Positions 1,034 to 22,281 of a stretch of 42,565 nt of DNA are shown piece after piece (positions within the stretch are counted from its first letter, which is position 1; the number at the start of each line of letters is the position of its first letter). Below the pieces are notes generated by a model, which had not been told where the DNA came from, ran no database searches, and worked only from the letters and a program-made list of their open reading frames with translations. The DNA comes from a virus (Duplodnaviria; Heunggongvirae; Uroviricota; Caudoviricetes): IMG/VR virus record IMGVR_UViG_2654588006_000002; one strand, 5' to 3'. Both the position numbers and the translations under genes were made by a program.

Positions 1034-2059
1034 TTACTTGGAATATTTTCTTGGAATATTTTCAGGTAACGGGACATCAAGTGTCGGTGAAACTTTAACC
1101 TTCCTGTCATAGATTAGCACTTGCCCCTCGGTTTTGTGACCAGAGAAAAGTTGCTTATCCCGACTGCTTCCTTCATAGTCTGAAATTCCTTTCGCCTTCA
1201 GATCATGAAAGGTGAAGTCGGTTAAAATACCTGAAATTTTGCCTGCGCGATTTCTTGCTTCTACCCACATTTCGTTAAAGCCTTTGTACATATATCGGTT
1301 GCCGTATTGATTGCTGATTACATAGGCGGATGTTGGTAACTGTTTTGCTTTTTCGATCGCCGCCTGTAATCGTGGACTCCATGCTTTTATCTGTTTTTTT
1401 CCTGTTTTCCCTTGCTGGATAAAGATCCCGTCGTTTCCAATCTGCTCCCATTTCAGCGATAACACATCGGAAACCCTCGCTGCACACAGATAGGCAATTT
1501 CCATTGCGATAAAAACAGGAAGAGGTGCAACGCTTAATACTGCCTGGTATTCTTTGTCGGTTACATATCGTTCGCGGTTTTTGGCCTTGAATTTACTTAC
1601 ACCTGCACATGGGTTAGCCTTCACGTACCCTCGCTCATACCCCCAACTGTAAACACGGGACATACTGCTTTTTTCATGGTTGGCTTGCGTTTTACTCTGC
1701 TCCCCTCTTTTGTCCATGTATCGACGGATGTGTTCTGGTTTTATGGAATCCGCTGGTACCTTACCGAATACGGCAAGCAACTTTTTTTGATGTTGCAGAT
1801 AATCTTTTTGTGTTCTTGGACTAAGGTCACTGTAATAGGCGCTGGCGAGGAATTTTTCCCACAAGCGACCGAATGTCATTGCACGATCGCGATTATTTAC
1901 AGTTTCCTCATACTTTTTCCATAAAGCAGCTAAACCATCCTTGATGGCGGTTAGTGTGACAGATTCTCTGGATGTTGGTTTCCATACATAACTATATTTA
2001 TTTGGGTATACATTTGGAGGTAATTTTTCGTGTTCAGGATTTTTCCTTCGTCTTCCCAT
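1034..2059 (-). CDS. int: Phage integrase, tyrosine recombinase family
   Basis: 341-aa ORF adjacent to the tRNA; C-terminal region has the HDLK/LFSGHKTEGQVLIYDRK arrangement typical of the tyrosine recombinase catalytic domain. Confidence 0.9.
   Translation of the reverse strand: MGRRRKNPEHEKLPPNVYPNKYSYVWKPTSRESVTLTAIKDGLAALWKKYEETVNNRDRAMTFGRLWEKFLASAYYSDLSPRTQKDYLQHQKKLLAVFGKVPADSIKPEHIRRYMDKRGEQSKTQANHEKSSMSRVYSWGYERGYVKANPCAGVSKFKAKNRERYVTDKEYQAVLSVAPLPVFIAMEIAYLCAARVSDVLSLKWEQIGNDGIFIQQGKTGKKQIKAWSPRLQAAIEKAKQLPTSAYVISNQYGNRYMYKGFNEMWVEARNRAGKISGILTDFTFHDLKAKGISDYEGSSRDKQLFSGHKTEGQVLIYDRKVKVSPTLDVPLPENIPRKYSK
1038..1063. repeat. Perfect tandem direct repeat 2 x TTGGAATATTTTC, with a third partial copy at 1027-1036
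   Basis: Read directly from sequence; overlaps the 3' end of the integrase gene near attL; possible arm-type recombinase binding sites. Confidence 0.5.
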
Positions 2060-2320: not shown

Positions 2321-4762
2321 TTAAAAATCAGCCTGACTCGGGATCAGTTTTTGCCAGATAGCTGAAACGTATTTTGCCTGGTAACGAGCGTCATCAAGTG
2401 CATTATGGCGCTCACCTTCGAATGGAATAGCCGTTCTGGCATCGAAGTCTATGGCTTTCCCCAGCTCAACGATTGTGCGTACATCGCGATCGTTGTAGTA
2501 ACGCCACGGGCAGGTGATCCCCTGCCGTTCGTATGAACGGCGCAAAATCGTGTTGTCGAAGTTGGCTCCATTTCCCCAGACCTGAACAAAAAATTCACCG
2601 GAGTTTTCGTCGATAAATTCCCGCAATTGTAACAGTGCATCATCTAACGGGATTTCATCGGTCATAATGGCAGATTGCGCTTCGCGTGATTGCTTAAGCC
2701 ACCATTTAATGGTGTCCCGATCAATGACTCCGCCAGCAGTTTCCAGATCGATAGTCTTACTAAATTCCGGTCCCACATCTCCGGTTTGCGGATCGAAAAA
2801 TATTGCACCTATTGAGATGATCGGGGCATCAGGATTTTTTCCCATGGTTTCAAGGTCGATCATTAGATGGTCACACGTCCTGCTGGTGGATGTGATTTCT
2901 TGATGACCGTTCACCTTAATTGAGTGATCTGCCGTCTCGCCAGTTTCATTATCGCTATCGTGATGCTGATTGCCGCCAGTGTTCTCCTTGTGTGGATGTT
3001 CAGCGCCTTCCATTTTCTCCGGATCATTTTCCTGAACTTCAACCTGATTCTCTTCATCGAATGTTTCCTGGTATGTTGCGTCGCCCATCACCGCGCCACA
3101 ATCAGGGCAGTTGCCGCCACCGCTCTGACCGCAGGCGGTGCTGACTTTTTCCGGTTCCTGTTGCGCTACTGGTTCGGATTGTTTCGTTTCTGGCTCGTTT
3201 TGTAACGCATTTGGGCTGTTTTGTTCCGCTTTTTGGTCGTTCCGTTCCGATTCATGCTGGTTCTGGTTCACAGAATCGCGAGTCTGGATCCCCTTAACCC
3301 ATTTCGGATCATTAGGGTCGCTAATCCCCTCAACAAATTCACCACGCGATACAGCAAGTAACTTATCGGCGTCAGGCTGGCTGATATTGGCTGCCTGCAT
3401 AATTTTGTTTACTTCGTCAGCGGTGACTTTTACTTGGTTAGCGGAACTCACCTGCGACTGAGCATCCAGCGACTGCGCGTTCTGGCCATGTTCAGTTGTA
3501 TCCGGTTCCATTGTTTCAGTTGTTGCCTGTTCACCTGCCATTGCGTCAGATGGTTGTGGTTTTTCTTCTTCTGTTTCACGCTCAGTAACCACCTCGCGGT
3601 TAATTTCTTCCAGGATATCTTTTTCCGGCGTATGCCGGGCAGCTGTGAGAGTTTCCTTGCTGGGGTTCTCGTGATCAGTTTCCGTCAAATAGGCGTTGAT
3701 ATACCCCTGAAGGCGTCCCGGGTAGTGATAAAATTCAGGGTGTGCGCTTCGGATAAGTGCAAAAATAGCGGCGCGGGAATAGTCCAGAATACCCGGGGTT
3801 GCACGAAGTGCTGCGGACCATTCTTTGAACGGACTTTCTTTGTTCAGGACTACTTCTTTTGCGCGACGATAAACGCTGCCCGGAATTTCATAAATATTAA
3901 AATCCATCGGAAGTGTGGCTGCTGCAATCTCCACATCCAGTGTGTCGAGGGTGTGTACTAAATTCGGATTGCGATCGGTTTTGTTCCCACCGCCAGCATT
4001 AGCACCGGAAGCCGTGCGGGTGATGCGTGAAACACGATTTCCTTTCATCCACTCTTTTGTCAGCAGACCCCGATCAGTGTAGTCAGCGTCCAGGTATGCT
4101 TCGAAAAAAGCAGTTATTAGTCCCAGGTCTGAATTACCAGGATTAGGGAAAACTTTGTCAGTGTCACGAACCAGTTTGTGGAGGTCGCGAATCTCCAGCG
4201 AGTCGAGCAGACTGGTTTTATGCGAAATAGCCAGGGCAGTAACAGCCGGTAGTTCTTCAGCCCGTGCAATGTGTAATGCCTGGAGTTCGTCGCGTGAAAC
4301 GTGCGTTACTGGTTTTTCGCTGCCGTGTTGAGCAAGCCAACGAATGGGCAGTTCCTGACCGGAGACAGGCAGAAGCATGCTCTCCTCAATCTCAGTCATG
4401 TCTTCACCGTTGATGTTGGTATTGTCAGTGCTGGCTGGTTTGTCCTGAACAGAGGGGGAAGGGCCGATAAATGTCATTGTGATGCCATCTTTCCCGCCTT
4501 TTTCATAGCGGTTGCAGAATTCAGTATCAAACACGCCTTCTGGCGGAAGGTCGTCAACAACGGGCAAATTGACGCGGACGGGTTTTTTAAAGTCGTCTTC
4601 ATCATAATCGTTGTCATCCATTGCGGTAATGCAGCGGGAGATTGCAACAGATAATTTTTTTGCTGTAGTCCAGTAAAAACCACCTTTAATTCCTAGGCGT
4701 TTTCTTACTTTGTCATTTTTTGCTTCGCAATATAGTGCAAATTCTTCTTTATCAGTGCTCAT
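2321..4762 (-). CDS. Large phage exonuclease with C-terminal DEDDh-type 3'-5' exonuclease domain
   Basis: 813-aa ORF; C-terminal motifs [32 protein letters not shown] fit a DnaQ-like exonuclease fold; central acidic low-complexity linker and a Cys cluster [13 protein letters not shown]. Confidence 0.75.
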
Positions 4763-4855: not shown

Positions 4856-5047
4856 TTAAAATCCTGCCGGGATTTCGTTATTATCCTGGTGAATAACTTT
4901 ATCGACCGGATAACAGTTGCCTGGAATTTTCTGTTCGGTTGCTGCTGCCATACATTCCTGCATTGTTCTGTGAACACTGACTGCAATATCAACTGGCTCT
5001 CCGGAAACAAGAAAAACCGTCAGAATAAGTGCAAATACTGGATTCAT
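4856..5047 (-). CDS. YdfD-like small membrane protein, 63 aa, downstream of dicB
   Basis: MNPVFALILTVFLVSGEP... hydrophobic N-terminus; start overlaps the dicB stop; same size and position as ydfD of the Qin dicB operon. Confidence 0.5.
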   Translation of the reverse strand: MNPVFALILTVFLVSGEPVDIAVSVHRTMQECMAAATEQKIPGNCYPVDKVIHQDNNEIPAGF

Positions 5048-5232
5048 TGTGCACATCCTTTTGGCATCAGACGTAAACGGGCCAGCATTGAAACAATGCA
5101 TACTTTATTTAATAACTCCCGTTCGTGTTTTCTTTTGTTAATGGCATCTTCAGTAAATACAGGATTACTGATAGTGACACCAATTTCAAAACAACCTTCA
5201 GACGTATTAACGTTTGGTAATAACGTTTTCAT
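5044..5232 (-). CDS. dicB: Cell-division inhibitor DicB, 62 aa
   Basis: MKTLLPNVNTSEGCFEIGVTISNPVFTEDAINKRK...ARLRLMPKGCAQ from Met36 of ORF 5044..5337; GAGGG RBS; sits right downstream of DicF as in Qin. Confidence 0.75.
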   Translation of the reverse strand: MKTLLPNVNTSEGCFEIGVTISNPVFTEDAINKRKHERELLNKVCIVSMLARLRLMPKGCAQ

Positions 5233-5401
5233 TATCGCGCCCTCAACAATGAGTTTTGTGATGCGGTGCCTGGTGCCTCCAGGTGACGTTAACCAGTTAA
5301 CAATTAACGCCGGATACAGAGAATCCACCCATAACACTGTTTTTGGTTTTAACTGTTCCGCGTGCGCTTAGCCGCATTCACCGCATCACAAAATTCACTT
5401 T

Positions 5402-5459
5402 AAAAAGGGCGGCAGAGCAGTCACGGAGTAAAACTGATACCGCCAAACGTCACCAGAAA
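5402..5459 (-). ncRNA. dicF: DicF small RNA (ftsZ-targeting) with intrinsic terminator
   Basis: Minus strand reads TTTCTGGTGACGTTTGGCGGTATCAGTTTTACTCCGTGACTGCTCTGCCGCCCTTTTT, matching the DicF sequence recalled from memory, ending in a GGCGG/CCGCC hairpin plus U-run. Confidence 0.85.
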
Positions 5460-5799
5460 ATTGATAACAGAGGGCGTTGCAGCGGGGTTGTCACTTAAGC
5501 GTATGGTCAACCTGACAACCCGGTGTCCTCAACGGGGAAGGAATAACCCCGCCATACTTACCGCCGCGCCATTTCGCGGAGTGCCACAACCGGAAGCGCA
5601 CGGTCGACGAAAATTTAACGACAGGCTATCTATGAACCAGCTACCTCGCCGTGCGCTTTCGCGTTATGGTCTGACTTTTCATGGAAATATCCTTTCAGTA
5701 AACTGTCAGTGCCGGATGCTCACCCGTGTCCGGCGCACGCACTCCACCTCACCCGTGGAGAACTCCTTAATTACCAACCTTAGCTTCGTTGGTTAGCTA

Positions 5800-10067: not shown

Positions 10068-11381
10068 ATGTTTGTTCAATTTTCTTTTAAAAATTATTTG
10101 TCGTTTAAAGATGAATCAACTCTATCGATGCTTGCCGCGAAAATTAAGTCTAAAGATAAAGGTTTAGATAAACGCGCGGTGTTTAATGCTTTTCCTGATG
10201 TTGATCTTTTAAAAGCAGCCGTTATATATGGTGCAAATGGAAGTGGAAAAAGCAATATCTTTTCTGCTTTATCTTTCATGAAGAGAATGGTGATCAATTC
10301 TTCAAAAGAATCTCAAGCAGATGAAGATATAAATGTTCTTCCATTTAAGTTAAATCCAAGGTTTGAGGATGAGCCTTCGGCTTTTGAAATGATATTTATA
10401 ATTAATAACAAACTTTACGAGTATACGTTTGCTGCTGTTCGAAATAAAATCACATCAGAAACATTATCTGTAATCGAAAAGAACAGAGATGAAGTGATTT
10501 TGTTCGAGAGAAATATGAAAGAAATAAAGGTACACAAACAGTTCAAAGAAGGTATTGGTTTAGAAAAAAGAACCAGGAAAAATGCGTTGTTCTTATCTGT
10601 CTGTGCTAATTTTGATGGCGAGGTATCTAAATCGGTAATTAGATGGTTTAGAAAAATTAGAGTTATTCAAGGTATGAGTGACATAGGTTATCTGCCATTT
10701 ACTGTGAAACTTTTGGATGATGATAATAAACGTAAAAAAATAAAATCAATTATTGATATGTTCGATCTCGATATTGTCAATATATCTAAGAGCCAAATTC
10801 AGCAGACAGAGAAAAAAGAAAATGAGCTTTTAGATGCGATATTTTCAACTATAAAAAAAGATTCAAGATTTAAAAATGTGTCTTTACCTCAGTCTAATCC
10901 ACTAGGTATCTCAACTACCCATAACCGTTTCAATGACGAAGGTGTTTTTGTAGATACAATTAATTTTGAGTTAAATGAAAACGAATCTGAAGGAACAAAA
11001 AAGCTCATTGCATTGGCTGGCCCTTTAATGGATACCTTTGACAACTCATATATATTGTTTATCGATGAGTTTGATGCAAGGCTTCATCCTTTGATTACTA
11101 AACAAATTGTTAGGATGTTCAATAGTTTAGATATCAATAAAAATAATGCGCAATTGGTAGTCGCAACGCATGATACAAATCTTTTAGATAAAGATGAGTT
11201 ACGTAGAGATCAGATATGGTTTGCGGAAAAGGACTCATTGGGTGGGTCGCATTTAAAACAACTAGTTGAATATAAAGTTAGGAACGACGCATCTTATCGA
11301 AAAGGGTATTTTGAAGGCGATTTTGGCGCTATTCCTATGTTGGGTGAGCCAGATATAATTTTTGATTCAGAATTAAATTAA
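10068..11381 (+). CDS. AAA_21/ABC-type ATPase (AbiLi-like), 437 aa
   Basis: GGAGG RBS 5 nt before ATG 10068; Walker A GANGSGKSN; signature-like ESEGTKK; Walker B ILFIDEFDARLHP; H-loop VVATHD; strongly AT-rich coding sequence. Confidence 0.85.
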   Translation: MFVQFSFKNYLSFKDESTLSMLAAKIKSKDKGLDKRAVFNAFPDVDLLKAAVIYGANGSGKSNIFSALSFMKRMVINSSKESQADEDINVLPFKLNPRFEDEPSAFEMIFIINNKLYEYTFAAVRNKITSETLSVIEKNRDEVILFERNMKEIKVHKQFKEGIGLEKRTRKNALFLSVCANFDGEVSKSVIRWFRKIRVIQGMSDIGYLPFTVKLLDDDNKRKKIKSIIDMFDLDIVNISKSQIQQTEKKENELLDAIFSTIKKDSRFKNVSLPQSNPLGISTTHNRFNDEGVFVDTINFELNENESEGTKKLIALAGPLMDTFDNSYILFIDEFDARLHPLITKQIVRMFNSLDINKNNAQLVVATHDTNLLDKDELRRDQIWFAEKDSLGGSHLKQLVEYKVRNDASYRKGYFEGDFGAIPMLGEPDIIFDSELN

Positions 11382-11408: not shown

Positions 11409-11999
11409 ATGAAATTAAAACAAAGGAACGTTGGCAGCAAAGATATTGAGAAAAAAATTCTTATTGTTTGTGAGGGGGCACGAACAGAACCGTCATACTT
11501 TAAAAAGTTTAAAGCAAATGCAAAATGTGAGGTAGTGGGGGCTGGTTGTAATACTGTTAGTGTTGTTGAAAAAGCATTAGACATGTTCTCTACAGGGAAG
11601 TTTAAAGAAGCGTGGTGTGTTTTTGATAGAGATTCTTTCACTAAGGACAGAGTTAAGTCTGCGCTTGCATTAGCACGAAAAAACAATATAAATATAGCAT
11701 TTTCTAATGAGTCGTTTGAGTTGTGGTATGTTTTGCATTTTGCATATTTAGATACAAAAATTACTCGTGGAGATTATGTGAAGGCGCTAACTGGTTATTT
11801 GGGGAAACCGTACAAAAAGAATGATGATAATATGTATCAAATACTGCTTAAGAATCAGCACAAGGCTATAGAGAGAGCGAAACGTCTTTATAATGAAATG
11901 TTGCCTCCGGGAGCTTGTGAGTGCGACTCTTATCCTTATACTACTATTCATACATTAGTTGAAAGATTAAATAAGTTAGGGCGGGAAATCGGCTCTTAA
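11409..11999 (+). CDS. RloB-like protein (AbiLii-like partner of the ATPase), 196 aa
   Basis: ATG 11409 with GAGG RBS, 27 nt after the ATPase stop; N-terminal KILIVCEGARTEPSYFKKF matches the RloB-family signature as recalled; AT-rich. Confidence 0.7.
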   Translation: MKLKQRNVGSKDIEKKILIVCEGARTEPSYFKKFKANAKCEVVGAGCNTVSVVEKALDMFSTGKFKEAWCVFDRDSFTKDRVKSALALARKNNINIAFSNESFELWYVLHFAYLDTKITRGDYVKALTGYLGKPYKKNDDNMYQILLKNQHKAIERAKRLYNEMLPPGACECDSYPYTTIHTLVERLNKLGREIGS

Positions 12000-12903: not shown

Positions 12904-13059
12904 ATGAAGCAGCAAAAGGCGATGTTAATCGCCCTGATCGTCATCTGTTTAACCGTCATAGTGACGGCACTGGTAACGAGGAAAGACCTCTGCGAGGTAC
13001 GAATCCGAACCGGCCAGACGGAGGTCGCTGTCTTCACAGCTTACGAATCTGAGGAGTAA
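12904..13059 (+). CDS. hok: Hok/Gef family type I toxin, 51 aa; in-frame mok-like upstream start at 12847
   Basis: MKQQKAMLIALIVICLTVIVTALVTRKDLCEVRIRTGQTEVAVFTAYESEE resembles Hok; AAGGAG RBS; leader has GCTTGAGGC...TCTGCCTC and AGCCTCTTAC elements resembling hok mRNA. Confidence 0.85.
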   Translation: MKQQKAMLIALIVICLTVIVTALVTRKDLCEVRIRTGQTEVAVFTAYESEE

Positions 13060-14948: not shown

Positions 14949-15308
14949 ATGCGTATAGAGTTTGTTTTGCCTTACCCGCCAACGGTGAACACCTACTGGC
15001 GGCGTCGTGGCAGCACATATTTTGTATCAAAAGTCGGTGAGCGTTATCGCCGTGATGTGGCGCTTATTGTTCGCCAGCAGCAACTGAAATTAAACCTGTC
15101 CGGAAGGCTGGCGATAAAGATTATTGCAGAGCCACCGGATAAGCGCCGTCGTGACCTGGACAATATCCTGAAGGCACCACTGGATGCGCTGACGCATGCC
15201 GGACTACTTATAGACGACGAGCAGTTTGATGAAATCAATATTGTGCGCGGTCAGCTCGTTCCTGGTGGGCGGCTGGGGATAAAAATCACAGAACTGGAGT
15301 GCGCATGA
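14949..15308 (+). CDS. rusA: Holliday junction resolvase RusA
   Basis: MRIEFVLPYPPTVNTYWRRRG...RRDLDNILKAPLDALTHAGLLIDDEQ, classic RusA. Confidence 0.9.
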   Translation: MRIEFVLPYPPTVNTYWRRRGSTYFVSKVGERYRRDVALIVRQQQLKLNLSGRLAIKIIAEPPDKRRRDLDNILKAPLDALTHAGLLIDDEQFDEINIVRGQLVPGGRLGIKITELECA

Positions 15309-15994
15309 ATAACCAGTATTTACAGTTTGTGCGTGAGCAGCTCATTATCGCCACCGCTGATTTGAGTGGGGCAACAAAAGGTCAGCTTGAAGCCTGGCAG
15401 GAGAATGCCATGTTCGATACAGGGCGTTACAGGCGAAAAAAAATCCGGTACCGCGATGAAGTGACTGGAAAAATGATAACGCGGGATAATCCACCAATCC
15501 CGGGAAAACAATCACTGGCGAATGGCTCATCAATTGCCCTGGTCAGCCCGGTTGAGTTTTCGACATCATCATGGCGGCGGGCTTTGCTGTCTCTTGAAGA
15601 GCATCATAAAGCCTGGTTGTTGTGGTGTTACGGCGAGAGTATTTGTTGGGAATATCAGATCGCGATAACACAGTGGGCGTGGAATGAATTTAATACTCAA
15701 TCCGGTACCAGAAAAATTGCAGGGAAAACGCAGGAACGCCTGAAAAAATTAATCTGGCTGGCGGCGCAGGCAGTAAAAGCAGAACTTTTTGGTGGGGAAG
15801 GTTATGAATACCAGGAGCTGGCATTACTGGCGGGAGTGACAACTAAAAACTGGTCCAAAACATTTACTCGTCACTGGGTTGCAATGAAACACATTTTTCA
15901 ACGACTGGATAGTGAGGCTTTATTGTTTGTAATGAGAACACGTTCAAAACAAAAGGCGGCATTTTCAAAGCAAAGTGTTGCAAAAGTAGATTGA
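15305..15994 (+). CDS. Late-gene antitermination protein Q-like
   Basis: ATG overlaps the rusA stop (ATGA); directly upstream of the tR'-like terminator, tRNAs and lysis genes. Confidence 0.7.
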   Translation: MNNQYLQFVREQLIIATADLSGATKGQLEAWQENAMFDTGRYRRKKIRYRDEVTGKMITRDNPPIPGKQSLANGSSIALVSPVEFSTSSWRRALLSLEEHHKAWLLWCYGESICWEYQIAITQWAWNEFNTQSGTRKIAGKTQERLKKLIWLAAQAVKAELFGGEGYEYQELALLAGVTTKNWSKTFTRHWVAMKHIFQRLDSEALLFVMRTRSKQKAAFSKQSVAKVD

Positions 15995-16204: not shown

Positions 16205-16280
16205 GGCCCTTTAGCTCAGTGGTGAGAGCGAGCGACTCATAATCGCCAGGTCGCTGGTTCAAATCCAGCAAGGGCCACCA
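16205..16280 (+). tRNA. tRNA with CAU anticodon, tRNA-Ile2 (lysidine) type or Met
   Basis: GGCCCTTTAGCTCAGTGGTGAGAGCGAGCGACTCATAATCGCCAGGTCGCTGGTTCAAATCCAGCAAGGGCCACCA; 7-bp acceptor stem, U8, loop CTCATAA; resembles E. coli ileX-type tRNA from memory. Confidence 0.85.
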
Positions 16281-16281
16281 A

Positions 16282-16358
16282 CCGTCACCAGTTCATCAGG
16301 AAAGAGCGTCAACCCTTTAAGTTGAGTGTGCGAGGTTCGAGTCCCCGGTGGCGGTCCA
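16282..16358 (+). tRNA. Atypical tRNA-like gene (anticodon-loop CCTTTAA, UUU/Lys-like; C1, C8, C33), possibly a pseudo-tRNA
   Basis: Folds by eye as a cloverleaf (acceptor CCGTCAC/GTGGCGG with G-U, anticodon stem TCAAC/GTTGA, TPsiC GGTTCGAGTCC, 3' CCA) but lacks the near-invariant U8 and U33. Confidence 0.45.
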
Positions 16359-16360
16359 GT

Positions 16361-16436
<76 letters not shown>

Positions 16437-16439
16437 TAT

Positions 16440-16514
<75 letters not shown>

Positions 16515-17440: not shown

Positions 17441-17974
17441 ATGAACGCAAAAATCAGATACGGCCTGTCGGCTGCCGTTCTGGCACTGATTGCCGTCGGT
17501 GCGCCCGCGCCTGATATTCTCGACCAGTTTCTGGATGAAAAAGAAGGTAACCACACAACGGCATACCGCGATGGTTCCGGCATCTGGACCATCTGTCGGG
17601 GTGCCACGATGGTGGATGGAAAACCCGTTTTTCCCGGTATGAAACTGTCGAAGGAAAAATGCGACCAGGTCAACGCCATTGAGCGTGATAAGGCGCTGGC
17701 ATGGGTGGAGCGCAATATTAAAGTACCACTGACCGAACCACAAAAAGCGGGTATCGCGTCATTTTGTCCCTATAACATTGGCCCCGGTAAGTGTTTTCCA
17801 TCGACGTTTTATAAGCGGCTGAATGCTGGTGATCGTAAGGGCGCATGCGAGGCGATTCGCTGGTGGATAAAAGATGGTGGGCGCGATTGCCGCATACGTT
17901 CAAATAACTGCTATGGACAGGTTATTCGTCGTGACCAGGAAAGCGCATTAGCCTGTTGGGGAATAGATCAGTGA
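17441..17974 (+). CDS. R: SAR endolysin (lysozyme, phage-21 R type)
   Basis: N-terminal signal-anchor-release segment [18 protein letters not shown] followed by a lysozyme-like domain ([20 protein letters not shown]...). Confidence 0.85.
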
Positions 17975-18438
17975 GCAGAGTCGCCGCGATTATTTATGCT
18001 CTGGTTATCTGCATCATCGTCTGCCTGTCGTGGGCGGTCAATCATTACCGTGATAACGCCATCACCTACAAAGAACAGCGTGATAAAAAAGTCAGTGAGC
18101 TGAAGCAGCTGACCGCCACCATCGCTGACATGCAGCAGCGTCAGCGTGATGTTGCTGCGCTCGATGCAAAGTACTCGAGAGAATTAGCCAATGCGAAAGC
18201 TGAAAATGAAACTCTGCGCGCTGATGTTGCCGCTGGTCGTAAGCGCCTGCGGGTCAATGCCAGTTGCTCCGCAGCCGTGCGTGAAGCCACCGGACCCACC
18301 AGCGTGGATAATGCAACCAGCCCCAGACTGGCAGACACCGCTGAACGGGATTATTTCACCCTCAGAGAACGGTTGATGACGATGCAGAAGCAACTGGAAG
18401 GGGCACAGCTATACATTCGTGAGCAATGTCTCAGATAA
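17971..18438 (+). CDS. Rz: i-spanin Rz
   Basis: GTG start overlaps the R stop (GTGA); N-terminal TM segment [19 protein letters not shown] then coiled-coil-like sequence. Confidence 0.8.
18191..18376 (+). CDS. Rz1: o-spanin Rz1 lipoprotein embedded in Rz (+1 frame)
   Basis: [22 protein letters not shown] lipobox; proline-rich [32 protein letters not shown] resembles lambda Rz1. Confidence 0.8.
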
Positions 18439-18593
18439 AAACCGGCCAAGGATAATCCGCTAAAGATTCGCCGGTGGCGAAAGAGAGCCAAGGTGTCAAC
18501 CTACGCTATTACTTATGATAATGCAACAGACGAAGCGGGACATATTGGCGCATAACAAATCAGTGCAGGCTAACTGCAGGAAGAACTTAGGGC

Positions 18594-18860
18594 GTGAACG
18601 TAGAAAACCTAAGTAACGCACATTACATCTATAACGAGATGAAAGAGCTACAGCGACAGAAAGGTATACTGGAAAGTGGTGCAGGGCTTGGTGTGACAAT
18701 CCAGTCTGCCTATCAATATAGTGCTTTTCTTGAGGCCATACGCCCGCATGCAGTTGCTGAACTTAACAGCCGTATTGAGGAAAAGAAATCCGCGCTGGTT
18801 AATTTGGGTGCTTCCTTCTCTATATACGAGCATAATAAGGCGGGTTGGAAACCCGCCTAA
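18594..18860 (+). CDS. Hypothetical protein
   Basis: 88-aa ORF with GTG start and weak RBS; convergent with the YfbU-like gene. Confidence 0.3.
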   Translation: MNVENLSNAHYIYNEMKELQRQKGILESGAGLGVTIQSAYQYSAFLEAIRPHAVAELNSRIEEKKSALVNLGASFSIYEHNKAGWKPA

Positions 18861-18865
18861 AGCAC

Positions 18866-19405
18866 TTAGAAACTGCGTGGAGCTGTGGAAAGAATGGATG
18901 CCAGTTCTTCCTTCGATAAATCCCAGCTTCGATTTACAGCGTCAATTTTCTTAAACTCATCAAGCATTGCGTTATAGAGATGTTCTGTACGTGAATGAGT
19001 ATTGGCAATGGGCTGTTTCTGTTCGGGGAAGCGATCAATTTTCTGATATGCCTCAATGATACTGAAGTAATCGCATTCATTATTACCGTCGAAACCTGGG
19101 AGCTGAATTGCCCCATCATGTATTTTTAGATGATGGTCACGGACTAATTCTTTTTGCTCGTCATCACTAAGTTTCCTGAAAGCATTGGAAAGTCCGCGAT
19201 ACATATTCAAGACAGCAGTAACAAAATCACGATCTTCTTTACTTGGTTCGTCAACATCCAAATGTGAATATTCGGCCTTGATAACCCAATCATTACCAGA
19301 TGACACAGCATATTTAACAAGCTGTGGATCAATATCAGTTTCGATACCTAGGTGGATGGCAATGTCACATAACAAAATGGTATTGATTTTATCTTTAATA
19401 TCCAT
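18866..19405 (-). CDS. YfbU-like (UPF0304 family) protein, minus-strand moron
   Basis: 179-aa ORF; segments VTAVLNMYRGLSNAF, LPGFDGNNECDYF and WDLSKEELASILST align by eye with E. coli YfbU blocks (IIDIMEMYHALHVSW, FLGFDAATEARYLGY, YHLSANEINQIINA), from memory. Confidence 0.5.
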   Translation of the reverse strand: MDIKDKINTILLCDIAIHLGIETDIDPQLVKYAVSSGNDWVIKAEYSHLDVDEPSKEDRDFVTAVLNMYRGLSNAFRKLSDDEQKELVRDHHLKIHDGAIQLPGFDGNNECDYFSIIEAYQKIDRFPEQKQPIANTHSRTEHLYNAMLDEFKKIDAVNRSWDLSKEELASILSTAPRSF

Positions 19406-19543
19406 GAGTTAACCCTCTGAAGTAAAAAGTAATATCTACACCCGTTGGCTCATGAAGTCTATTGATCTGTCTCATATCAGCAGCAAATCTATTCCATGGA
19501 GATACTCAATGCAGGTCACCTTTGATTTATATAAGGGCGAAAC

Positions 19544-19894
19544 ATGCCAGCACTAATCCCACGCGCCTGCCGTAAGCGTGGATGTGCAGGTACAACCACA
19601 GACAGTTCTGGTTACTGCGATAAACATCGTGGCGAAGGATGGGTACAGCATCAACGCGGACTGAGCCGCCACCAGCGTGGCTATGGCTCGAAATGGGATG
19701 CCATACGTGCGCGCATACTGAAGCGTGATAATCATCTGTGTCAGAACTGCCTGCGCAATGGGAGAGCCGTTGAAGCCAGAACTGTGGACCACATCATTCC
19801 GAAAGCTCATGGTGGCACGGATGCAGACAGTAACCTGCAGAGTCTGTGCTGGCCCTGTCATAAAGCAAAAACAGCGCGCGAACGCATCAATTGA
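19544..19894 (+). CDS. HNH endonuclease (terminase-associated)
   Basis: CxxC...HxxxxC...DHIIPKAHGGTDADSNLQSLCWPCHKAK HNH motif; directly upstream of the terminase small subunit. Confidence 0.85.
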   Translation: MPALIPRACRKRGCAGTTTDSSGYCDKHRGEGWVQHQRGLSRHQRGYGSKWDAIRARILKRDNHLCQNCLRNGRAVEARTVDHIIPKAHGGTDADSNLQSLCWPCHKAKTARERIN

Positions 19895-20041: not shown

Positions 20042-20524
20042 ATGTCAGGACCTCCGAAAACCCCGCCACGCCTGCATTTGATACGAGGCAACCCCTCAAA
20101 GCGCCCCGTTAAAGACTCAAAAAAAACCGCTAAAAAGGATGAAAAAGGTCTCCCTAAAATTCCGCAGCATTTAGGGGCACAGGGGAAGTACTGGTTCAGG
20201 CGAATGGCGGAAGAGCTGAATGCGGAAGGGATCATTTCTCAGCTTGATGCGCGTGCACTCGAGTTGCTGGTGGAAGCCTATACCGAATATCGGCATCACT
20301 GCGAAACACTCGATGTTGAGGGGTATACCTACCGCACGGAAACGCAGAGCGGTGATGTACTGATTAAGGCGCACCCCGCGGCGGCAATGAAAGCGGATGC
20401 CTGGAAGCGGATCCGGGCAATGCTTGCAGAGTTTGGTATGTCACCGGCAAGCCGGGCTAAAGTAAATATTGCCGGACCGGATGATGTTGATCCGCTGGCG
20501 GAGCTTTTAAAAGCGAGAGACTGA
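20042..20524 (+). CDS. Terminase small subunit
   Basis: 160-aa basic N-terminal protein immediately before, and overlapping, the large terminase gene. Confidence 0.75.
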   Translation: MSGPPKTPPRLHLIRGNPSKRPVKDSKKTAKKDEKGLPKIPQHLGAQGKYWFRRMAEELNAEGIISQLDARALELLVEAYTEYRHHCETLDVEGYTYRTETQSGDVLIKAHPAAAMKADAWKRIRAMLAEFGMSPASRAKVNIAGPDDVDPLAELLKARD

Positions 20525-22281
20525 TGGCAAAAGTGGCTGACGGGATCCGCTACGCCGAACGTGTTGTTGCAGGAGAAATTGTTGCTGGCGAATTTGTCCG
20601 CCTGGCCTGCCAGCGTTTTCTTGATGATCTAAAGTACGGCGAAGAGCGGGGGATTTATTTCAGTGAACCACGTGCGCAGCACATCCTGAATTTCTACAAA
20701 TTTGTGCCTCATGTAAAAGGGGCGCTGGCAGGCCAGCCTATTGAGTTGATGGACTGGCATGTATTTATCCTCATTAATATTTTTGGTTTTGTCATTCCGC
20801 TGGTCAATGAAGAGACCGGGGAAGTTGTCATGCGCAGCGATGGCAGCGGGCGCCCGGTGATGGTGCGCCGGTTCCGGACAGCATACAACGAAGTTGCCCG
20901 TAAAAACGCAAAATCAACCCTGTCATCGGGTATCGGTCTGTATATGACGGGGGCAGATGGTGAAGGCGGTGCTGAGGTGTATTCAGCCGCAACCACGCGT
21001 GACCAGGCCAGAATCGTGTTTGAAGACGCCAAAAATATGGTCAGAAAAGCCCGGTCGACACTCGGGCGGTTGTTTGATTTCAACAAGCTGGCGATTTACC
21101 AGGAGCAGAGCGCATCAAAATTTGAACCGCTTTCTTCGGATGCAAACAACCTGGATGGTCTGAACATCCACTGCGCCATTATTGATGAGCTGCATGCACA
21201 TAAAACCCGTGACGTGTGGGACGTTCTGGAAACGGCAACCGGTGCCCGTCTGCAGTCCCTTTTATTTGGTATCACCACGGCAGGGTTTAACAAGGAAGGG
21301 ATTTGTTACGAGCAGCGTGATTATGCCATCAAGGTATTGCGTGGCTATAACAGCGACGTGGAGGGCGCTGTAAAAGACGACTCCTACTTTGCGATTATTT
21401 ACACCCTCGATGAGGGAGATGATCCGTTTGATGAAACGGTCTGGCAGAAAGCGAATCCTGGCCTGGGCATCTGTAAACGCTGGGATGATCTGCGTCGTCT
21501 GGCGAAAAAAGCGAAAGAACAGGTCTCTGCGCGGGTGAATTTTTTTACCAAACACATGAATGTGTGGGTAACAGCAGAGTCTGCCTGGATGGACATGATT
21601 AAGTGGGAGAAGTGCGAATACATTGCCCCGCGACATGAGCTGAAAACGTATCCCATGTGGGTCGGCGTTGACCTTGCTCATAAGATTGATATCTGTGCGG
21701 CGGCAAAACTCTGGCGAACGGATAACGGGCATGTTCATGCCGATTTTAAATTCTGGCTCCCGGAAGGACGGCTGGAACGATGCTCGCGGCAGCAGGCAGA
21801 ACTTTACCGGAAGTGGGCGGAGATGGATAAGCTGATTCTGACGGATGGTGATGTTATCGATCATGCTCAGATAAAAAGTGACTTACTGGAATGGATTGGT
21901 GGTGAAAACCTCAGGGAACTGGGATTTGACCCGTGGAGCGCGATGCAGTTCAGCCTAGCACTGGCTGAAGAAGGGATACCGCTGGTGGAGGTTCCGCAGA
22001 CGGTTCGCAATCTGTCAGAGGCCATGAAGGAAACGGAATCACTGGTCTATGCCGGACGTTTCCATCACAGCAATCATCCGGTCATGAACTGGATGATGTC
22101 TAACGTTACGGTAAAACCGGACAAAAACGACAATATCTTCCCGAATAAATCCACGCTGGAAGCCAAAATCGACGGCCCTGTTGCGATGTTTACAGCAATG
22201 AGCCGGATGCTGGTCAATGGTGGTGAACCGGAGCCGGATCTGTCTGAACATCTGGTCAGCGTGGGCATCCGCTCGCTTTAA
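20524..22281 (+). CDS. Terminase large subunit
   Basis: 585-aa ORF with ATPase N-terminus and nuclease C-terminus layout; start overlaps terS stop (ATGA). Confidence 0.9.

Follow-up and report, generated by a model that had tools for sequence, protein, structure and literature searches.

What function would a prophage keep in a gene that runs against all of the late genes around it? This question is raised by IMGVR_UViG_2654588006_000002, a stretch of 42,565 nucleotides (nts; here called the window) that is a lambdoid E. coli prophage, and in which a minus-strand gene for a protein of 179 amino acids (aa) lies between the lysis and the packaging genes (Table 1). Plus-strand late genes stand on both sides of it, namely those for the holin, YdfR, lysozyme and Rz/Rz1 on the left and those for an HNH endonuclease and the terminase subunits TerS and TerL on the right. 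The original prediction had described this gene as YfbU-like (UPF0304) and, together with a small plus-strand open reading frame (ORF) converging on it, as a pair of moron genes carried as lysogen-expressed cargo; the coordinates given for both ORFs and the antisense placement of the 179-aa gene after the lysis cassette proved correct. We report that the gene encodes a divergent relative of YfbU and is the only gene of the inserted unit, and we propose, tentatively, that its product may protect the lysogen against other phages. All unlabelled coordinates are positions in the window, and L numbers denote homologous loci fetched for comparison.

A hidden Markov model search bore out the suggested relationship to YfbU, since the protein matches Pfam PF03887 over residues 46-172 with 46.3 bits against a gathering score of 25 (E 6.5e-12); it also matches PHROG 6084 (E 8e-83), and its RefSeq name is already "YfbU family protein". 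Its score for the NCBIfam equivalog of chromosomal YfbU, NF003936, is below the threshold (34.8 bits versus a cut-off of 90), and the comparison with K-12 YfbU gives 21% identity (E 0.044). In an AlphaFold model built from 30 homologues (predicted local distance difference test, 90), the protein adopts the two-domain, all-helical YfbU fold, its N-terminus aligns with the N-terminal helix of YfbU, and it is predicted to be soluble and helical. The gene is under strong purifying selection, with a ratio of nonsynonymous to synonymous substitution rates (dN/dS) of 0.07 relative to a 95.6%-identical allele; relative to an 83% homologue, the nonsynonymous and synonymous proportions of differences were 0.10 and 0.79, respectively, the synonymous sites being saturated. 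Because the Pfam threshold is passed, that of the equivalog is not, the identity is low and the sequence is maintained by selection, we consider the protein to be a real and conserved paralogue of YfbU that has diverged from it, and not its orthologue. Residues C12, W39, G103-F-D-G-N-N-E109, H136 and Y143 are invariant in its clade (numbering follows an alignment whose first row lacks Met1, so that the native number is one higher). Two other assignments were rejected: the match to the restriction endonuclease Cfr10I/Bse634I is below the Pfam cut-off (18.4 versus 27 bits) and the protein is folded from helices only, while a lipoprotein of the bor/iss type built on the invariant Cys12 is at odds with a charged N-terminus (MDIKDKINTILLCD) and with a predicted helix, 2-18, that forms part of the bundle.

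We examined the borders of the inserted unit by comparison with two sister prophages, L006 and L007, in which the lysozyme-Rz and HNH-TerS flanks are 95-97% identical to those of the window. The gap between Rz and HNH is an empty 42 bp in L006 and contains a minus-strand iss (bor-type) gene in L007, a version that was found in 566 genomes. Homology to both sisters is lost at 18408-18437 on the left side and, on the right, returns precisely with the ATG of the HNH gene, and the GC content is 35-42% across 18900-19500 versus 50-58% in the flanks. As the unit is bounded by this gap polymorphism, by the homology joints, by a terminator-like hairpin and by the GC shift, it is a one-gene cassette, a single-gene moron of about 18821..19543 that consists of the hairpin, the gene and a 138-bp upstream region. 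The classical definition of a moron lists five features, and antisense placement is typical of morons that are expressed in the lysogen; three of the five are seen here, in full or in part (insertion polymorphism, deviant GC and the terminator-like hairpin). Hence, the expectation that the interval between Rz and the packaging genes is a cargo position holds, as it is the bor/iss slot and is filled by insertion relative to the sister prophages. The region of the gene is 100% identical in strain CE10 (NC_017646, gene CE10_RS05480) and in phage vB_EcoS-611R1, and among 5,426 complete E. coli genomes, 223 (4%) contain the 1.2-kb segment in full.

The two ends of the unit carry candidate signals for its own expression. 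The hairpin lies 7 nts past the stop codon of the gene, and the RNA fold of 18815-18880 on the minus strand has an energy of -20.1 kcal/mol (z -2.9); a consensus scan for terminators on the minus strand did not list it, and we regard it as a putative terminator of the minus-strand gene. No Rfam family was found within 18300-19700. Upstream of the gene, a weak promoter-like element is composed of TAGACT (19461-19456), a 19-nt spacer and GATATT (19436-19431); it is kept in position in the window, L008, L009 and L051, with TGGACT-N18-AAGAAT in L053, and TAGACT-N19-GATATT may be the promoter. The same region is overlapped by a short plus-strand ORF whose ribosome binding site and first 5-6 codons recur in a gene of L053, where that gene and the YfbU homologue are divergent; the short ORF may, on weak grounds, be a 5′ remnant of such a gene that was carried along with the moron. 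The L053 gene (L053:2444-3901, minus strand, 485 aa) starts with MQVTID, and L052 and L053 both retain the AGTGACCTGCAT block around this start; its product looks glycosyltransferase-like, by eye alone.

The position and orientation of the gene are conserved well beyond this prophage. In all nine further prophage contexts that we compared (L009, L011/12, L015-18, L047 and L051-53; 50-83% identity), the YfbU homologue has the lysis genes on one side and the gene for the small terminase subunit on the other, and it is encoded on the strand opposite to the late genes. This position is kept despite differing lysis cassettes (GH19, phage lysozyme or other) and differing terminases (HNH with a P27-type TerS, or Nu1/GpA). 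To judge from the source names, the hosts are other Enterobacterales, with Enterobacter and Providencia attached to two of the proteins. A 32%-identical relative is found upstream of the holin gene of another lambdoid prophage, again antisense, and no conserved neighbour gene of the YfbU homologues was found across the homologous loci. A survey of prophages at this position showed it to be variable, the gap being empty or holding iss/bor, TIR, kinase or YfbU-fold genes. The gap of L052 contains a TIR protein (L052:1397-2275, plus strand; PADLOC PDC-S66, E 1e-113; ThsB-like), and that of L053 a Ser/Thr kinase matching the PD-T4-6/mad6/Stk2 models together with a PP2C phosphatase (L053:5721-6488 and 4990-5724, both minus strand). 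Since the TIR and kinase/PP2C cargo is also located there, the gap between lysis and terminase genes behaves as a hotspot for cargo and defence genes. In the nin region of the window prophage itself, a two-gene AbiL abortive-infection system is present (AbiLi, E 4.5e-91; AbiLii, E 2.9e-29), for which RefSeq uses the names "AAA family ATPase" and "RloB family protein".

Relatives of the protein are also carried by plasmids and by at least one phage of another type. A small Acinetobacter plasmid has a YfbU homologue beside AbiD, a Xanthomonas plasmid has a relative near RelE/ParE, and relatives occur on 269 plasmid records of Enterococcus; a 186-aa neighbour of the Enterococcus homologue was considered as ToxN/AbiQ-like and dropped after it gave no PADLOC or Pfam match. 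In the P2-like Yersinia phage vB_YenM_324, a 32%-identical YfbU-fold gene (L005:3956-4534) follows the tail-fibre genes in a stretch of hypothetical genes close to the record end, which is possibly a Z/fun-type cargo position. A profile of the prophage clade recovered 2,119 cluster representatives (50% clustering, E<=1e-3); with few exceptions these proteins stand alone and are 170-200 aa long. An N-terminal extension of about 55 aa is present in about 15% of the 150 family representatives nearest to the profile, and this extension is just under the threshold for a CopG ribbon-helix-helix domain in four of ten that were scanned (P0101, P0105, P0136 and P0143) and in Xanthomonas L021:5737-6459 (plasmid pXcaw58), the five scores being 16.9-20.4 bits against a cut-off of 20.5. 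Such a CopG-type extension would suit the tight self-regulation of a harmful protein.

The second ORF of the original pair, here called ORF88, has a different origin. Nucleotide homology to the E. coli relative L008 begins at 18525, and the translation MIMQQTKRDILAHNKSVQANCRK... matches the C-terminus of a 68-aa lipobox-bearing gene (L008:2886-3092) and that of Citrobacter phage Chris1 (L003:3386-3523), which indicates that the remnant of an o-spanin gene marks a mosaic recombination joint just past the lambda-type Rz/Rz1. Homologues of ORF88 directly follow the spanin genes of GH19-type cassettes on the late strand in Chris1, in Klebsiella phage ST101-KPC2phi6.3 and in L008, and the first two of these have no YfbU gene. 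The homology of ORF88 to Chris1 ends at 18820, which corresponds to codon 76 and to the length of the PHROG 5415 profile, and the last 12 codons (18822-18857) are therefore derived from the terminator region of the moron; the dN/dS relative to Chris1 is 0.32. In summary, ORF88 is a late-strand gene left from a GH19-type lysis cassette, beside which a single moron landed and whose tail it rewrote, so that of the proposed convergent moron pair the minus-strand gene stands as a moron, by its insertion and low GC, and ORF88 does not.

A two-gene module made up of ORF88 and the YfbU-like gene, as a toxin-antitoxin or a sensor-effector system, would account for their adjacency, with stop codons 5 nts apart, for their co-occurrence in the 223 E. 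coli genomes and for their joint movement into a second lysis-cassette background, that of L008. A single insertion beside ORF88, inherited by descent, explains this co-occurrence, and the module conflicts with several observations: ORF88 homologues exist without any YfbU gene; in L008, ORF88 has an internal stop and is a pseudogene, whereas the YfbU gene is intact; and the translated small ORFs running towards the YfbU homologue in the nine further contexts are either unrelated to ORF88 or the o-spanin gene itself. A tblastn search of L001-L018 with ORF88 gave no match beyond L001, L003, L004 and L008, and absence at the loci beyond L018 was judged from the called genes. As convergent transcription is, in addition, atypical of toxin-antitoxin operons, we consider such a module highly improbable, and the lack of conserved co-occurrence essentially refutes a pair relation with ORF88.

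We then compared the gene with the relatives for which a role has been described. Kamadhenu (pUCCL624_130) is a 180-aa YfbU-domain protein of a Lactococcus plasmid that acts as a single-gene abortive-infection (Abi) system; it leaves phage DNA replication, transcription and translation unaffected, phages escape from it by point mutations at one residue, G22, of a Sak-like single-strand annealing protein (SSAP), and, as its authors point out, the plasmid that bears it carries further defence systems alongside it (Grafakou et al. 2024, PMC11381338; Mosterd et al. 2025, PMC12184496). Kamadhenu and the prophage gene have in common that they are single YfbU-domain genes of almost the same length on mobile elements, one on the plasmid of a Gram-positive host and the other in a Gram-negative prophage. 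No Lactococcus member was found among the matches listed (60 of 356 records) when plasmids were searched by tblastn with the window protein and with the Raoultella and Enterococcus homologues, nor in a protein search seeded with the Enterococcus protein or in a genome scan with an alignment of the Lactobacillales clade. As a proxy for Kamadhenu, we used the YfbU clade of Lactobacillales plasmids, which are mostly from Enterococcus. Profile-profile comparison aligned the prophage clade with this plasmid clade over the full length (probability 99.2, E 2.6e-19) and with chromosomal YfbU over the C-terminal half only (probability 96, E 4.7e-9), which suggests that the prophage clade is closer to the plasmid clade than to chromosomal YfbU. 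The nearest of the Lactobacillales plasmid relatives that were retrieved (mostly Enterococcus) are 24% identical to the window protein in the alignment and 22% over the profile-profile alignment. The mobile clades have GFD-x-N-[ND]..E, in the form of GFDGNNE in the proteobacterial mobile clades and GFDYND-PKE in the Enterococcus plasmid clade, followed by N-[ST]-H.

Chromosomal E. coli YfbU (PDB 1WPB and 4LR3) belongs to the same Pfam family and has the same overall fold and the same GFD...E, N and Y positions. It is 15-21% identical to the window protein, with AAT in place of GNN (GFDAATE) and Q in place of H136 (NAQ), and it stands in a fixed housekeeping locus, hxpA-yfbU-yfbV, whereas the window gene is on a mobile element. 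The lambda bor and E. coli iss genes offer a likeness of another kind: they occupy exactly this slot after Rz and before the packaging genes, they too run antisense, and they are likewise present in some sister prophages and absent from others. Their product is an outer-membrane lipoprotein for serum resistance, whereas the YfbU-fold protein has neither a signal peptide nor a lipobox context.

From the analogy with Kamadhenu, we propose that the moron may provide a lysogen-expressed, single-protein anti-phage function, by abortive infection or exclusion, a reading that we consider quite possible. The gene would have a weak promoter of its own and be transcribed counter to the late operon, and its product would therefore be made in the lysogen, at a time when the late genes are off. 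The product, predicted to be a cytoplasmic, all-helical, two-domain protein with the YfbU fold, would protect the lysogen from superinfecting phages in the manner of Kamadhenu: by analogy, a recombination or replication protein of the incoming phage, or an intermediate, would be sensed, annealing or recombination proteins being the predicted trigger, and a block at a late step or cell death would follow. As the candidate functional site we point to the polar cluster GFDGNNE...N-T-H...Y, which is invariant in the clade. The company of defence genes is counted in favour of an anti-phage role, that is, the TIR and kinase/PP2C genes in the gap, AbiD on a plasmid and AbiL elsewhere in the prophage.

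Several points weigh against this proposal. Phage resistance, Abi behaviour and escape through an SSAP are known for Kamadhenu only, and the tie to Kamadhenu consists of a shared Pfam family, fold, size and architecture and not of a direct alignment. The sigma-70 scan of the minus strand upstream of the gene gave no site of at least 9/12, and hence no strong promoter. The slot alone does not imply defence, because iss/bor, which is non-defence cargo, is also found there. Chromosomal YfbU is a conserved housekeeping-type gene with no known biochemical function, and a distant homologue, P0044, lies among ordinary chromosomal genes. PADLOC v2 (2023) gave no match for the 179-aa protein, a silence that is expected since this release predates Kamadhenu.

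The relationship with the chromosomal protein leads to a different reading, in which the prophage gene would be a lysogenic-conversion factor that mimics, or interferes with, a host YfbU complex and tunes the fate of the cell under SOS or other stress, with consequences for the survival of the lysogen or the yield of prophage induction. The fold is the same as that of host YfbU, the slot is also used by iss/bor, a host-fitness gene, and the YfbU of PDB 1WPB is described as forming a large complex, which makes mixed oligomers conceivable. The only phenotype reported for a yfbU deletion is a reduced mazEF-dependent death after DNA damage, and host yfbU was scored as a "death gene" only under such damage, to which lambdoid prophages respond by induction; this death-protein phenotype comes from a single report. 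Hetero-oligomers with host YfbU are unlikely because the identity is low, the N-terminal domain is not alignable by sequence and the motif differs (GFDGNNE/NTH versus GFDAATE/NAQ). In addition, relatives occur on plasmids of bacteria that are not shown to have a chromosomal YfbU (for example, Enterococcus and Actinobacteria). We therefore regard a conversion factor as unlikely.

The gene could also benefit the phage in its own lytic cycle or induction, as an anti-defence gene or as a modulator of recombination or packaging that lies antisense beside the packaging genes by chance. The constant linkage to the lysis-terminase junction in the nine further contexts would be consistent with this, as would the presence in the region of ORF88 and other small late genes of unknown function, and the genetic interaction of Kamadhenu with a phage recombination protein implies that the fold may bind SSAP-type proteins elsewhere. 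However, a late lytic function would be poorly served by a gene lying antisense in a Q-antiterminated late operon, an arrangement that is typical of lysogen-expressed morons; the gene is dispensable, as sister prophages with an empty site exist; and plasmids, in which there is no lytic cycle, commonly carry its homologues. A role in the lytic cycle is thus quite improbable, and an anti-phage function in the lysogen remains the reading that we prefer, with the reservations given above.

The prophage adjoins tRNA-Ser and mtfA at its insertion site, and several other features were recorded along the window (Table 1). A four-tRNA array, with a CAT-anticodon Met/Ile2, Lys-UUU, Thr-UGU and Gly-UCC, sits between the gene for antiterminator Q and the holin gene. 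A hokD-type type I toxin gene is present according to the annotation of the 99.7%-identical HN68 prophage. In an 813-aa "exonuclease", the N-terminal region is of the Exonuc_VIII (RecE-like) kind and is followed at the C-terminus by an Rv2179c-like 3′-5′ exoribonuclease domain (E 6.7e-68), and no RecT-type gene was seen beside it in the annotation. The integrase ORF encodes 341 aa; as the HN68 annotation marks its counterpart as frameshifted, the prophage may be excision-defective.

Table 1. Coordinates of the YfbU-fold moron, of the late genes that flank it and of other features recorded in the window.
Feature	Position	Strand	Remarks
Integrase ORF	1034..2059	-	
813-aa "exonuclease" gene	2321..4762	-	
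AbiL system (two genes)	10068..11381 and 11409..11999	+	nin region
hokD-type toxin gene	about 12904..13059	+	
Antiterminator Q gene	about 15304..15993		
Four-tRNA array	16205..16514	+	
Holin gene	16807 (start)	+	
YdfR/DUF1327 gene	17027 (start)	+	
Lysozyme gene	17441 (start)	+	
Rz (i-spanin) gene with embedded Rz1 (18191..18376)	17956..18438	+	left flank of the variable gap
3′ remnant of o-spanin gene, GH19-type lysis cassette	18525..18616	+	includes a 33-aa ORF (18515..18616)
ORF88 (WP_001100260.1)	18594..18860	+	88 aa, GTG start; PHROG 5415, E 2e-38; function unknown
Terminator-like hairpin	18838..18858	-	9-bp GC-rich stem AGGCGGGUU/AACCCGCCU, loop UCC, tail UAUUAUG
YfbU-fold gene (WP_000351660.1)	18866..19405	-	179 aa, ATG start; cargo of the moron
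Upstream region of the YfbU-fold gene	19406..19543	-	Shine-Dalgarno sequence GAGGG (19417-19413); weak promoter-like element
Short ORF MQVTFDLYKGETCQH (ending in a stop)	19509..19556	+	possible 5′ remnant, on weak grounds
HNH endonuclease gene	19544..19894	+	Pfam HNH, E 1.9e-16; right flank of the variable gap
TerS gene	20042..20524	+	after HNH
TerL gene	20524..22281	+	after TerS

The YfbU annotation of the gene and the existence of a YfbU-domain defence system were already known; a literature search turned up no publication that deals with YfbU-fold genes in prophages or with this slot as the place where they reside. The gap between Rz and the terminase genes of lambdoid prophages emerges as an exchangeable cargo slot for iss/bor, TIR, kinase and YfbU-fold genes. 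It is conceivable, although we hold it to be rather doubtful, that YfbU-fold proteins are widespread single-protein immune sensor-effectors on the prophages and plasmids of Gram-negative and Gram-positive bacteria, that the GFDGNNE / N-T-H / Y cluster forms a new catalytic or trigger-binding site and that chromosomal YfbU is a domesticated relative. If this were true, the family could be studied conveniently in its E. coli prophage clade. The mechanism of Kamadhenu is unknown, and Lactococcus is harder to work in than E. coli; the prophage gene, present in 4% of complete E. coli genomes and in a well-understood lambdoid slot, is hence testable with coliphage panels and standard genetics. A YfbU structure has been in the PDB since 2004 with a function still lacking, and the prophage gene may offer a route to the function of this long-orphan fold.

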